NCBI RefSeq assembly: GCF_001677475.2
Contig: NZ_CP015229.1
Direction: 5' to 3' (one strand)
Source of the DNA: Escherichia coli
Lineage (GTDB): Bacteria > Pseudomonadota > Gammaproteobacteria > Enterobacterales > Enterobacteriaceae
Length of the DNA stretch: 64,000 nt
The notes below the pieces were generated by a model. That model had not been told where the DNA came from and searched no databases. It saw only the letters and a program-made list of their open reading frames with translations. The translations under genes and the position numbers were made by a program. Of this stretch, positions 58,295 to 62,200 are shown piece after piece (position 1 is the first letter of the stretch; each line of letters opens with the position of its first letter).

Positions 58295-58528
58295 ATGCCG
58301 GGTTACACAGAGTATGTTCTGGCTGAAGGATCTTTCTCATACGGGCAGGCGGTTGCTGTCATAACAGCTTACCGCAATGTGTTTATCCAGAATGACCCGG
58401 GAATGCATTTCCGTTGGGTTATCCGCAACGCGGAAGGTCAGCGACGCTGGAGCTACCGGAATTCTGAACCCGATGCCGGAAAGGTGCTTAATACGCAGCT
58501 CGCCAGTGACGGTCTTCTCAGACAATAA
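58295..58528 (+). CDS. DUF905-family small protein (YkfB/YfjS-like)
   Basis: 77 aa [45 protein letters not shown]...; typical small ORF of CP4-like islands. Confidence 0.55.
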
Positions 58529-58627
58529 ACGTCATTCATTTCACCCATCAGGCCGCGTCTTCTCCGGGAGACGTGGCTTTTTCATTTATTACACCAGTAA
58601 ATCTTAACCACCGATAAGGAGCAAATT

Positions 58628-59446
58628 ATGCGACTAGCCAGTCGTTTTGGTTATGCGAACCAGATACGCCGTGACCGTCCGCTGACACACGAAGAACTGA
58701 TGCACTATGTTCCCGGTATTTTCGGTGAAGACCGGCATACTTCCCGCAGTAAACGATATGCGTACATTCCCACTATCACCGTACTGGAAAGCCTGCAGCA
58801 GGAAGGTTTTCAGCCATTCTTCGCCTGCCAGACCCGCGTGCGCGACCCGGGCCGCCGGGGATACACCAAACACATGCTGCGTCTGCGCCGTGACGGGGAG
58901 ATAAACGGACAACATGTCCCTGAAATCATCCTGCTGAACTCCCATGACGGTACCTCCAGCTACCAGATGCTGCCGGGTTACTTCAGGTTCGTCTGCCAGA
59001 ACGGATGCGTCTGTGGTCAGTCTCTGGGGGAAGTGCGTGTTCCACACCGGGGAAATGTAGTGGAGAAAGTTATCGAAGGGGCTTACGAGGTGGTGGGCGT
59101 GTTTGACCGGATAGAGGAGAAGCGTGATGCCATGCAGTCTCTGGTTCTGCCGCCACCGGCACGCCAGGCGCTGGCACAGGCGGCACTGACTTACCGTTAT
59201 GGTGACGAACATCAGCCGGTCACCACCGCTGACATTCTGACACCACGACGCAGGGAGGATTACGGTAAGGACCTGTGGAGCGCATATCAGACCATCCAGG
59301 AGAATATGCTGAAAGGCGGAATTTCCGGTCGCAGTGCCAGAGGAAAACGTATCCACACCCGTGCCATTCACAGCATCGACACGGACATTAAGCTCAATCG
59401 CGCATTGTGGGTGATGGCAGAAACACTGCTGAAGAGTATGCGCTGA
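58628..59446 (+). CDS. DUF932-family protein (YfjQ-like)
   Basis: 272 aa MRLASRFGYANQIRRDRPLTHEELMHYVPGIFGEDRHTSRSKRYAYIPT... Confidence 0.65.
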   Translation: MRLASRFGYANQIRRDRPLTHEELMHYVPGIFGEDRHTSRSKRYAYIPTITVLESLQQEGFQPFFACQTRVRDPGRRGYTKHMLRLRRDGEINGQHVPEIILLNSHDGTSSYQMLPGYFRFVCQNGCVCGQSLGEVRVPHRGNVVEKVIEGAYEVVGVFDRIEEKRDAMQSLVLPPPARQALAQAALTYRYGDEHQPVTTADILTPRRREDYGKDLWSAYQTIQENMLKGGISGRSARGKRIHTRAIHSIDTDIKLNRALWVMAETLLKSMR

Positions 59447-59536
59447 TGCCTTTTCCCTGAAAGCGCAGTTCTGACTCATGTCCGTCCCTGCCCCGCGACT
59501 TCTTCCATTCATTTACTTTTTATAAGGAATAATCTC

Positions 59537-60022
59537 ATGACAACCGTTTCGCATAATTCCACCACACCTTCTGTTTCCGTAACCGCTGTATCAGAGAATA
59601 ACCCGCCTCAACTGGTTGCCACCCTCGTCCCTGATGAACAGCGCATCAGCTTCTGGCCGCAGCACTTTGGCCTCATTCCACAGTGGGTGACCCTGGAGCC
59701 CCGTGTCTTCGGCTGGATGGACCGTCTGTGCGAAGACTACTGCGGTGGTATCTGGAATCTGTACACCCTGAACAACGGCGGGGCATTTATGGCACCCGAA
59801 CCGGATGACGATGATGACGAAGCATGGGTACTGTTCAATGCCATGAACGGTAACCGCGCTGAAATGAGCCCGGAAGCCGCCGGCATTGCTGCCTGTCTGA
59901 TGACGTACAGTCATCATGCCTGTCGTACGGAGAATTATGCCATGACAGTTCATTATTACCGGCTGCGGGATTACGCCCTGCAGCATCCGGAATGCAGCGC
60001 CATTATGCGCATCATCGACTGA
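59537..60022 (+). CDS. Antirestriction protein (YfjX/KlcA/ArdB-like)
   Basis: 161 aa; ...WPQHFGLIPQWVTLEPRVFGWMDRLCEDYCGGIWNLYTLNNGGAFMAPEPDDDDDE... matches the Antirestrict family. Confidence 0.75.
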   Translation: MTTVSHNSTTPSVSVTAVSENNPPQLVATLVPDEQRISFWPQHFGLIPQWVTLEPRVFGWMDRLCEDYCGGIWNLYTLNNGGAFMAPEPDDDDDEAWVLFNAMNGNRAEMSPEAAGIAACLMTYSHHACRTENYAMTVHYYRLRDYALQHPECSAIMRIID

Positions 60023-60037
60023 ATGGAGGCAGGGACA

Positions 60038-60514
60038 ATGCAGCAGCTTTCCTTTCTGCCCGGAGAGATGACGCCCGGCGAGCGCAGTCTCATTCTGCGG
60101 GCCCTGAAAACCCTGGACCGCCATCTTCATGAACCCGGCGTGGCCTTCACCTCCACCCGTGCAGCACGGGAATGGCTGATTCTGAACATGGCGGGACTGG
60201 AGCGTGAAGAGTTCCGGGTGCTGTATCTGAACAACCAGAATCAGCTGATTGCCGGTGAAACCCTCTTCACCGGCACCATCAACCGCACGGAAGTCCATCC
60301 CCAGGAAGTGATTAAACGCGCCCTGTATCACAATGCCGCTGCTGTGGTGCTGGCACACAATCACCCGTCCGGTGAAGTCACCCCCAGCAAGGCAGACCGC
60401 CTTATCACGGAACGTCTGGTACAGGCACTGGGCCTGGTGGATATCCGGGTGCCGGACCATCTGATAGTCGGTGGCAGCCAGGTTTTCTCCTTTGCCGAAC
60501 ACGGTCTGCTTTAA
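60038..60514 (+). CDS. RadC-like JAB-domain protein (YeeS/YfjY-like)
   Basis: About 158 aa from ATG 60038 with GGAGG SD; JAMM motif region VVLAHNHPSGEVTPSKADRLITERL. Confidence 0.8.
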   Translation: MQQLSFLPGEMTPGERSLILRALKTLDRHLHEPGVAFTSTRAAREWLILNMAGLEREEFRVLYLNNQNQLIAGETLFTGTINRTEVHPQEVIKRALYHNAAAVVLAHNHPSGEVTPSKADRLITERLVQALGLVDIRVPDHLIVGGSQVFSFAEHGLL

Positions 60515-60582
60515 CCCGTCACCGTCACAACTACATCACACTTGTTTTCACTTTTATCTTCTGTCTTCAGAGGTATCCCATC

Positions 60583-60804
60583 ATGAAAATTATCACCCGT
60601 GGTGAAGCCATGCGTATTCACCAACAGCATCCTGCATCCCGTCTTTTTCCGTTCTGTACCGGTAAGTACCGCTGGCACGGCAGCGCTGAAGCGTATACCG
60701 GTCGTGAAGTGCAGGATATTCCCGGCGTTCTTGCCGTGTTTGCTGAACGCCGTAAGGACAGTTTTGGCCCGTATGTCCGGCTGATGAGCGTCACCCTGAA
60801 CTAA
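60583..60804 (+). CDS. DUF987 protein (YeeT-like)
   Basis: 73 aa MKIITRGEAMRIHQQHPASRLFPFCTGKYRWHGSAEAYTGREVQDIPGVLAVF... Confidence 0.7.
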   Translation: MKIITRGEAMRIHQQHPASRLFPFCTGKYRWHGSAEAYTGREVQDIPGVLAVFAERRKDSFGPYVRLMSVTLN

Positions 60805-60882
60805 GTCAGGAAGGGCATTCTGATGAGCCGAATTATCGCCACCATTGAACTATTCTTAACTGATTTCTGTGAGGACTTTATC

Positions 60883-61251
60883 GTGTCAGACACACTGCCC
60901 GGGACAACGCATCCCGACAACAACAACGACCGCCCCTGGTGGGGGCTACCCTGCACCGTGACGCCCTGTTTCGGTGCACGTCTGGTGCAGGAGGGTAACC
61001 GGTTGCATTACCTTGCAGACCGCGCCGGTATCAGAGGCCGGTTCAGCGACGCGGATTCGTACCACCTGGACCAGGCCTTTCCGCTGCTGATGAAACAACT
61101 GGAGCTCATGCTCACCAGCGGTGAACTGAATCCCCGCCATCAGCATACCGTGACACTGTATGCGAAGGGGCTGACCTGCGAAGCCGACACCTTCGGCTCC
61201 TGTGATTACGTTTATCTGGCTGTTTATCCGACGCCCGAAACGAAAAAGTAA
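60883..61251 (+). CDS. cbeA: Type IV toxin-antitoxin antitoxin CbeA (YeeU-like)
   Basis: GTG start at 60883 preceded by GAGGA. Protein (M)[51 protein letters not shown]...[29 protein letters not shown] matches CbeA/YeeU. The ORF-track start at 60823 is an upstream extension. Confidence 0.85.
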
Positions 61252-61340
61252 ACCACCGGAATAACCCTCTGCTCCGGCCTGGTGTTTTCACCACGCCACT
61301 GTCCCATTTTTTATCTCTGCATATCAGGAAAATCTTCAGT

Positions 61341-61715
61341 ATGAAAACATTACCCGACACGCATGTACGGGAGGCATCGAGCTGCCCGTCTCCCGTCACC
61401 ATCTGGCAGACACTGCTCACCCGGTTACTGGACCAGCATTACAGCCTTACGCTGAATGACACACCGTTCGCGGATGAACGTGTGATTGAGCAGCATATTG
61501 AGGCAGGCATTTCACTGTGTGATGCGGTGAATTTTCTCGTGGAAAAATACGCGCTGGTGCGTACCGACCAGCCGGGATTCAACACTTGTCCCCGCTCTCA
61601 GTTAATAAACAGTATTGATATCCTCCGGGCTCGCCGGGCGACCGGCCTGATGACCCGCGACAATTACAGAACAGTAAATAACATTACCCTTGGTAAGCAT
61701 CCGGAGAAACGATGA
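61341..61715 (+). CDS. cbtA: Type IV toxin CbtA (YeeV-like; cytoskeleton-targeting toxin)
   Basis: 124 aa; ...[87 protein letters not shown] matches CbtA. Confidence 0.85.
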
Positions 61716-62200
61716 AACTGGCCCTGATGCTGGAAGCCGACAGCATTAATGTGCAGGCACTGAACATGGGGCGAATTGTCGTTGACGTCGATGGTGTTAA
61801 TCTCACTGAACTGATTAACAAGGTCGCTGAAAACGGTTATTCACTCCGCGTGGTGGAGGAATCCGACCAACAGTCAACCTGCACACTACCACCGTTTGCA
61901 ACCCTTGCCGGCATACGCTGCAGTACCGCACATATCACGGAAAAGGATAACGCCTGGCTGTACTCGCTGTCACACCAGACCAGTGACTTCGGTGAATCAG
62001 AATGGATTCATTTCACAGGTAGCGGATATCTGTTACGTACCGATGCGTGGTCATATCCGGTTCTGCGGCTTAAACGCCTGGGGCTGTCAAAAACGTTCCG
62101 TCGTCTGGTTGTCACACTCATCCAACGTTATGGCGTCAGTCTCATTCATCTGGATGCCAGCGCTGAATGTCTGCCGGACCTGCCCACTTTCGACTGGTAA
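61712..62200 (+). CDS. YeeW-like protein
   Basis: 162-aa ORF overlapping the cbtA stop (ATGA); position and size as yeeW in CP4-44. Confidence 0.6.

Follow-up and report, generated by a model that had tools for sequence, protein, structure and literature searches.

An intact CP4-44-type arm carrying ardB and cbeA-cbtA genes at the distal end of a pheV-borne island of Escherichia coli

Near one end of a 64,000-nucleotide stretch of Escherichia coli contig NZ_CP015229.1 (assembly GCF_001677475.2; hereafter the window), positions 58295–62200 hold eight intact plus-strand genes that follow one another without a gap in the series: DUF905, DUF932, an ArdB-type antirestriction gene, a RadC-like JAB gene, DUF987, the antitoxin gene cbeA, the toxin gene cbtA and a DUF5983 gene. 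The series is evident in the list of open reading frames (ORFs) of 54000–64000 and in Pfam comparisons, where bit scores were judged against the gathering scores and all eight genes lie far above them (Table 1). An earlier note, made from the sequence alone, had described this gene set, order and strand and had taken all frames to be intact. The ORF list, Pfam and alignment with K-12 proteins agree with it on each count, and, measured against the models and homologues, no frame of the block is truncated or broken by an internal stop.

The block makes up the distal arm of an island at pheV, of the P4-integrase (CP4-like) type and CP4-44 subtype. The features that mark CP4-type elements are all present, namely a tRNA target, an adjoining P4-type integrase, a distal attachment (att) repeat and a gene order that runs from a GTPase gene to DUF4942. 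The conserved arm reaches beyond the eight genes on both sides, from ~50918 to 63468. The three K-12 CP4 regions were aligned with the window at the protein level, and CP4-44 at the DNA level as well. Comparison with K-12 YeeS, YeeT, YeeU, YeeV and YeeW, and with YfjQ and YfjX, gave the result that the earlier note had predicted, and because of the K-12 protein identities the block is assigned to the CP4-44 type. The label that had been proposed, CP4-44/CP4-57-type, thus holds by identity in its first half and fails in its second.

The toxin-antitoxin identity of the central pair is well founded. Both cbeA and cbtA are recognized by their Pfam families, both resemble their K-12 counterparts, and CbeA matches the solved structures of YeeU (PDB 2H28, E=6e-78, residues 1–121) and YfjZ (2EA9/2JN7, E=3e-41). 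The antitoxin gene lies directly upstream of the toxin gene on the plus strand, with an 89-nt spacer between them. It was expected to start at a GTG codon behind a good Shine-Dalgarno sequence, and does so: GAGGA at 60871–60875 is followed after a 7-nt spacer by GTG at 60883. This arrangement (GAGGA or AAGGA, then GTG) is invariant in four homologous loci, and the sequence of the YeeU crystal structure begins at the same GTG codon. At the other end of the pair, the predicted overlap between the cbtA stop and the next gene is the ATGA at 61712–61715, which is also found in K-12 and in E. coli TB06051; cbtA and the DUF5983 gene are probably translationally coupled.

A longer cbeA reading frame of 142 amino acids, starting at ATG 60823, was considered and rejected. 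The frame is open only through a 1-bp deletion in this lineage, the loss of one T from a T-run within 60823–60885, which joins an upstream ORF of 16 codons to cbeA in one frame. It was set aside because of this origin, together with the invariant Shine-Dalgarno sequence and GTG codon and the start of the crystallized protein. In K-12, TB06051, Klebsiella and L018 the counterpart of ATG 60823 opens a separate 16-codon ORF (MSRIIA..FL), whose stop falls inside the cbeA Shine-Dalgarno sequence. This small ORF is confined to one leader type among those seen, the other leader types being without it.

The toxin carries no inactivating change. The protein is full length and keeps Phe65, which is invariant in 81 of 81 relatives in an alignment (the K-12 paralogues and 78 full-length representatives of clusters). 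Phe65 is the FtsZ determinant described by Heller et al., in whose work CbtA, YkfI and YpjF no longer bind FtsZ when they carry F65S (PMC5624674). Position 15 is Cys here, as in 57 of the relatives; Arg is found in 17. The toxin therefore does not have Arg15, the MreB determinant of K-12 CbtA (PMC5624674), a residue that is allele-specific and not family-defining. Cys15 was considered as a possible inactivating mutation and rejected, because most of the family has it and the toxic paralogues YkfI and YpjF share it. In these two toxins C15R left the interaction with MreB unchanged (PMC5624674), and the YkfI/YafW and YpjF/YfjZ pairs produce growth arrest by the toxin and rescue by the antitoxin (PMC5371832).

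The antirestriction protein matches ArdB of E. coli CFT073 (PDB 2WJ9, E=6e-97), with a core ~96% identical. Restriction by type IA–ID systems was lowered 10- to 9000-fold in vivo by CFT073 ArdB, YafX and YfjX, while modification was little affected and no effect was seen in vitro; the protection that ArdB gives incoming DNA against type I restriction is indirect (PMC2836571). For the toxin-antitoxin pair, growth arrest and lemon-shaped cells are reported for K-12 CbtA, and rescue by CbeA without toxin binding, in Tan 2011 and Masuda 2012 as far as their account in PMC5624674 goes. To the same extent, that account has CbtA binding FtsZ at the H6/H7 loop and MreB on its flat face, blocking division and elongation, and CbeA binding and bundling FtsZ and MreB polymers, not the toxin (Tan 2011, Masuda 2012 via PMC5624674). 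By analogy with these homologues, which are 86–98% identical, the present copies may be toxic, neutralizing and antirestrictive, respectively. ArdB would block type I restriction in vivo and spare modification; CbtA would bind FtsZ (via Phe65, at the H6/H7 loop) and MreB, so that division and elongation stop; and CbeA would counter CbtA indirectly, as a type IV antitoxin, by stabilizing and bundling FtsZ and MreB polymers.

Table 1. Features of the window, with supporting evidence and identity to K-12 proteins
Feature	Coordinates	Strand	Evidence	Comparison with K-12
P4-type integrase	3–1193	-	99% identical to pheV-linked integrase	
tRNA-Phe (pheV)	1391–1466	-	tRNA family match	
Upstream arm (YeeP-like GTPase, IsrC RNA, Ag43, YeeR, IrmA)	50918–58216	+	Pfam; collinear with K-12 CP4-44 and E. 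coli TB06051	
IsrC/IS102 RNA	51947–52183	+	Rfam RF00124, 74.8 bits	
Ag43	52202–55048	+	Pfam	
Full-length YeeR, about 838–840 aa	55169–57685	+	Pfam	YeeR 505/507
IrmA	57761–58216	+	Pfam	
DUF905 gene, YkfF-like, 77 aa	58295–58528	+	Pfam PF06006, 57 bits	
Terminator-like hairpin, DUF905/DUF932 gap	58550–58579	+	13-bp stem, 7 GC pairs, T-rich tail	
DUF932 gene, YafZ/YfjQ-like, 272 aa	58628–59446	+	Pfam PF06067, 178 bits	YafZ 200/271 (74%); YfjQ 198/271 (73%)
ArdB/KlcA-type antirestriction gene, 161 aa	59537–60022	+	Pfam PF03230 (Antirestrict), 126 bits against cut-off 25	YfjX/LfgA 102/135 (76%); YafX 68%
RadC-like JAB/JAMM metalloprotease gene, 158 aa	60038–60514	+	Pfam PF04002, 148 bits	YeeS 145/148 (98%)
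DUF987 gene, YeeT, 73 aa	60583–60804	+	Pfam PF06174, 136 bits	YeeT 72/73 (99%)
cbeA antitoxin, 122 aa, GTG start	60883–61251	+	Pfam PF06154 (CbeA_antitoxin), 179 bits against cut-off 27	CbeA 111/121 (92%)
cbtA toxin, 124 aa	61341–61715	+	Pfam PF06755 (CbtA_toxin), 206 bits against cut-off 25, model 1–112/112	CbtA 107/124 (86%)
DUF5983 gene, 162 aa	61712–62200	+	PF25638 102 bits, PF19419 78 bits (DUF5983_N + DUF5983)	YeeW 38/52 (73%), N-terminal domain only
DUF957-like gene, 65 aa	62212–62409	+	DUF957 annotation in syntenic E. coli locus; 65-aa call in identical contigs	
DUF4942 gene, 280 aa, last island gene	62494–63336	+	Pfam PF13708, 224 bits	
attR, imperfect 22-nt copy of tRNA-Phe (pheV) 3' end	63447–63468	+	TTCGATTCCGAGTCCGG-CACCA compared with pheV 3' end	

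The other genes of the block are less well characterized. The DUF905 protein matches the YkfF structure (PDB 2HJJ, E=9e-14), shares 43% identity (29/67) with K-12 YkfF, and is preceded by the Shine-Dalgarno sequence AGGAG; a search for solved structures of the DUF932 protein found none. The RadC-like frame is open also from ATG 60023, and RadC was the only NCBIfam model matched in the block. For DUF987 proteins an antirepressor role has been proposed on weak similarity, although dicBp was not derepressed (PMC10448788). The earlier note had called the last gene YeeW-like; the homology stands, but the gene is a complete 162-codon DUF5983 gene, and by sequence it is the full-length form of which K-12 YeeW (64 aa) is a remnant. 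It is missing from the Klebsiella loci and one Citrobacter locus and is therefore optional, and the idea that the toxin-antitoxin system needs it as a third component was rejected on the same grounds. Beyond the block, the DUF957-like gene is the last before a strong hairpin at 62437–62463, and the DUF4942 protein has weak similarity (E=1e-15) to a PHROG annotated as DNA methyltransferase. Several long antisense or overlapping ORFs, at 58634–59512 (-), 59591–60502 (-), 61896–62300 (+), 61112–61420 (-) and 62469–62963 (-), were rejected for want of any Pfam match. No RNA family was detected in 57600–63650 at E<=0.1, the only RNA families across the whole window being tRNA and IsrC/IS102, and the window holds no second copy of the module.

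The anatomy of the region suggests that the genes from DUF932 to DUF957 (DUF932, ardB, radC-like, DUF987, cbeA, cbtA, DUF5983 and DUF957) probably form one plus-strand unit, 58628–62409. Each has its own Shine-Dalgarno sequence. Strong plus-strand sites with a hairpin and T-run are found only after irmA (58241–58269), after DUF905 (58550–58579), after DUF957 (62437–62463) and at the old pheV terminator (63477–63505), positions that agree with one unit spanning DUF932 to DUF957. In CP4-57, the corresponding genes yfjXY-ypjJ-yfjZF have been described as one operon (PMC10846083). The hairpins at 58241–58269, 58550–58579 and 62437–62463 have similar T-rich tails (TTTTATTTAT, TTTCATTTAT and TTCGTTTATC) and lie only 25–48 nt ahead of the DUF905, DUF932 and DUF4942 start codons, which leaves little room for promoters.

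A gene block of this kind could be a silent relic, intact by recent descent, unexpressed, and of no use to the cell or the island. CP4-type elements have been called cryptic, no good promoter was found here, the island is rearranged and riddled with insertion sequences (IS), and homologous copies have decayed in other strains (ardB is frameshifted in TB06051, cbtA truncated in F1140). The ratio of nonsynonymous to synonymous substitution rates (dN/dS) speaks against it. In three comparisons, with the copies of TB06051, K-12 and Klebsiella, dN/dS is 0.03–0.34 for every gene of the block, and these copies have diverged to a dS of up to 0.68. Furthermore, all frames are full length, and the K-12 paralogues are expressed and have phenotypes (PMC5371832, PMC10846083). 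A silent relic is thus quite improbable.

The same ratios indicate where constraint is greatest. DUF987 (0.03–0.08, the tightest in the block), RadC (0.06–0.11) and DUF932 (0.06–0.11) are below CbtA (0.16–0.24) and CbeA (0.22–0.26), which suggests that within the module constraint is strongest on the uncharacterized genes and not on the toxin-antitoxin pair. The RadC-like protein has an intact zinc motif, HNHPSGEVTPSKAD (HxHx7Sx2D), at residue 107 and matches PDB 2QLC (E=1e-24); by analogy with its paralogue LfgB it is probably a zinc protease. The operon might be mainly a host stress-response module, with host regulators or antitoxins as substrates of the JAB protease and the pair modulating growth under oxidative stress; establishment or addiction of the island would be secondary. 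LfgB (YfjY), 72% identical to the RadC-like protein here, reportedly degrades MqsA and gives protection from H2O2, acid and heat (PMC10846083), and loss of three K-12 toxins lowered resistance to oxidative stress (PMC5371832); the tighter constraint on RadC and DUF987 than on the pair points the same way. However, the LfgB assay ran overnight with a poorly soluble protein, and its authors could not strictly exclude contaminating proteases (PMC10846083). Moreover, the block always accompanies integrase-type islands beside att sites, in several genera, and the function of ArdB is clearly that of a mobile element. We therefore regard a mainly host-directed module as unlikely, noting that stress-response and island roles are not mutually exclusive.

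A third alternative is that the CbtA/CbeA pair, with or without its neighbors, acts against phages by abortive infection. Phage defense is a role of many toxin-antitoxin systems, and the island holds a defense-like NERD-UvrD helicase and a T5orf172/GIY-YIG protein. Yet comparison of the ten proteins with the PADLOC models gave no match at E<=0.01, the adjoining ArdB is an anti-defense and not a defense protein, and a phage phenotype for the pair was not found in the literature searched. An abortive-infection role is the least probable of these alternatives and has little chance of being correct. The helicase (595 aa) and the T5orf172/MUG113 (GIY-YIG-like) protein (414 aa) are encoded by adjoining genes at 18076–21300; they look like a defense-type pair, and also occur together in the pheV island of E. 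coli TUM9757.

The island that carries the block has been rearranged. At the distal end, attR is followed by the old pheV terminator and then by yghD at 63616. At the other end of the window, pheV and its integrase are separated from the island by 12.6 kb of chromosome backbone, 1467 to ~14046, with the genes yqgA, speC, nupG, mltC, yggX, mutY, trmB, yggL, yggN, ansB and yggM. The backbone ends inside a TRAP permease gene cut by a copy of IS66 (14047–16551). From 14047 on, the DNA is that of the island, which, before the conserved arm, comprises this IS66 and several other IS elements, the NERD-UvrD helicase and T5orf172 genes, a K88-like fimbrial operon with an EAL gene beside it, and YagK/YfjJ. 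The pheV/integrase end (minus strand) and attR (plus strand) are in inverted orientation, which, with IS66 at the junction, indicates that an IS66-associated inversion or a more complex rearrangement separated them; simple att excision of this copy is therefore unlikely. The fimbrial operon, of the K88 (F4)-like chaperone-usher type, is on the minus strand at 23057–32454, next to the EAL-domain gene. It codes for an usher of 825 aa, a PapD-like chaperone and three or four subunits of K88 type; its GC content is 52–60%, and GATC is scarce in it.

The 3.9-kb block is common. Matches are present in 5017 of 5426 complete E. coli genomes, in 4273 of them at a coverage of at least 80%, at a median of three places per genome and almost always on the chromosome. 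The best full-length identity in this set is 93.7%, and the backbone flanks reach 98.7% at best. The block is nevertheless not a new variant, a suggestion that was rejected: draft assembly GCA_033729275.1 is 100% identical over 8260 bp, and the exact toxin occurs in 43 blocks of the assembly collection, always beside the yghD type II secretion genes. Since identity is at most 93.7% among finished genomes and 100% in drafts, the source lineage appears to be poorly represented among the former. The same gene order is found in Klebsiella, Enterobacter and Citrobacter, as well as in 49 of 60 IMG/VR loci that hold a CbtA relative. As a textbook and very widespread island module of Escherichia, the block is already known, and a pheV island of Shiga toxin-producing E. 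coli (STEC) with Ag43, KlcA and YeeP/R/S/T/U/V has been published (PMC6174562).

One feature of the operon stands apart from these familiar ones. Positions 58333–62763 contain no GATC, and 58295–62409 contains one, compared with about 12–16 expected (15.6 from a maximal-order Markov model), while other 4-bp palindromes are near expectation. For the coding sequences of the eight genes DUF932–DUF957 the count is zero against 10.9 +/- 2.5, a depletion reached in none of 1000 synonymous-codon shuffles; the shuffle test was calibrated on backbone genes, where observed and expected counts agree. Avoidance of Dcm, EcoKI, EcoBI, EcoAI, EcoR124I, GANTC, PstI and EcoRI sites was not seen in the operon. 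Elsewhere in the island GATC is also absent from Ag43 (0 vs 6.3) and from the GTPase, NERD-UvrD helicase and fimbrial usher genes, and its count is normal in YeeR (18 vs 15.1), DUF4942, IrmA and IS66. Related modules show depletion to varying degrees, with observed and expected counts of 0 and 7.7 in K-12 CP4-44, 1 and 8.6 in CP4-6, 2 and 7.9 in CP4-57, and 4 and 15.1 in Klebsiella, and it is weaker in the Enterobacter and Citrobacter modules. Across the 49 IMG/VR loci the GATC ratio is 0.28 in the module and 0.65 in the flanks; with one representative for each of 32 clusters it is 0.31, against 0.59–1.05 for control palindromes of the same base composition.

A second such stretch of ~4.2 kb, 50862–55083, is GATC-free save for three sites within 36 bp (51949–51984), upstream of Ag43 and overlapped by the IsrC homologue. 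These three sites are presumably the expected Dam/OxyR phase-variation switch of Ag43.

It may be that the absence of GATC across the DUF932–DUF957 operon is maintained by selection, but we consider this doubtful. If it were so, the operon would be invisible to Dam, SeqA, MutH or GATC-directed nucleases, and could, for example, be expressed instantly from DNA that has just entered the cell and is unmethylated or hemimethylated. GATC-free stretches are known in outline from E. coli mobile elements, GI-pheV included, with selection against Dam methylation as a possible cause (PMC4659465, PMC6602927). In the literature searched, such stretches were not found tied to this operon or to Ag43, nor given a mechanism, and their sharp mapping to these two is a detail not found there. 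The GATC-free character is the only feature of the operon that might repay more work.

Taken as a whole, the locus is very probably explained as the CP4-44-type arm of a pheV island, with a probable single transcription unit and predicted ArdB and CbtA/CbeA functions. Gene identity, intactness, synteny, purifying selection and the island boundaries were obtained directly. The active toxin and the help in establishing the island that had been proposed earlier are plausible extensions of the intact frames and of experiments on close homologues, and a part in island establishment or retention is suggested by the anatomy. Several points weigh against this explanation. First, a promoter scan detected no convincing sigma-70 site upstream of DUF932 or ardB (3 sites, 5.8 expected). 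Second, dual targeting of FtsZ and MreB is not certain, because the toxin is a Cys15 allele and R15C in K-12 CbtA abolishes MreB binding (PMC5624674). Third, the 1-bp deletion in the cbeA leader could give some antitoxin molecules a 20-residue extension (the 142-aa isoform). Finally, because pheV and the integrase are inverted relative to attR and IS66 lies in the backbone, any role of this copy in establishment after transfer is historical at best. As an intact natural Cys15 allele, the toxin gene may be used to ask whether toxins of the CP4-44 clade need Arg15 for MreB. The block is otherwise a routine marker of tRNA-borne islands, ~three per E. coli genome, and says little about the strain.

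Comparison with known elements places the locus closest to K-12 CP4-44 (flu-yeeR-yeeS-yeeT-cbeA-cbtA-yeeW), with which it is collinear in gene order and DNA. The cbeA-cbtA spacer there is 88 nt, one less than here, and the 4-bp overlap of cbtA and yeeW is the same. The toxin differs from K-12 CbtA at 17 of 124 residues, R15C among them. The K-12 element lacks 3372 bp that correspond to window positions 56690–60061 (junction at 10300–10303 of the K-12 region), a deletion that took the 3' third of yeeR, irmA, DUF905, DUF932, ardB and the first codons of yeeS. Because the DNA is collinear apart from these 3372 bp, K-12 yeeR and yeeS are the two edges of the deletion, and the 510-aa product of K-12 yeeR is a truncated form of the gene that is whole in the window. 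K-12 CP4-44 also lacks DUF957, DUF4942 and the integrase, and its yeeW is cut to 64 aa. The window thus contains the complete, undeleted right arm of CP4-44, and shows K-12 yeeR, yeeS and yeeW to be deletion remnants.

The other K-12 elements are more distant. CP4-57 (lfgA(yfjX)-lfgB(yfjY)-ypjJ-yfjZ-ypjF) and CP4-6 (yafX-ykfG-ykfH-yafW-ykfI) have the same five-gene order of antirestriction, RadC/JAB, DUF987, antitoxin and toxin genes, with DUF932 and DUF905 upstream. However, their proteins are only 58–81% identical to those of the window, their antitoxin-toxin spacer is 20 nt, their toxins are shorter (109–113 aa), and no DUF5983 gene follows. ArdB of CFT073 PAI-II (2WJ9) is near-identical in its core but differs in the first ~20 residues, and KlcA (PDB 2KMG) is of the same Pfam family but distant (E=1e-20). 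Among pheV islands, GI-pheV of STEC, uropathogenic E. coli and ST131 has the same insertion site, a P4-type integrase, Ag43, KlcA/ArdB and YeeP/R/S/T/U/V (PMC6174562). The present island differs from it in its cargo, which consists of K88-like fimbrial genes, an EAL protein and a helicase of the NERD-UvrD type, and in the inverted orientation of pheV and the integrase relative to attR.

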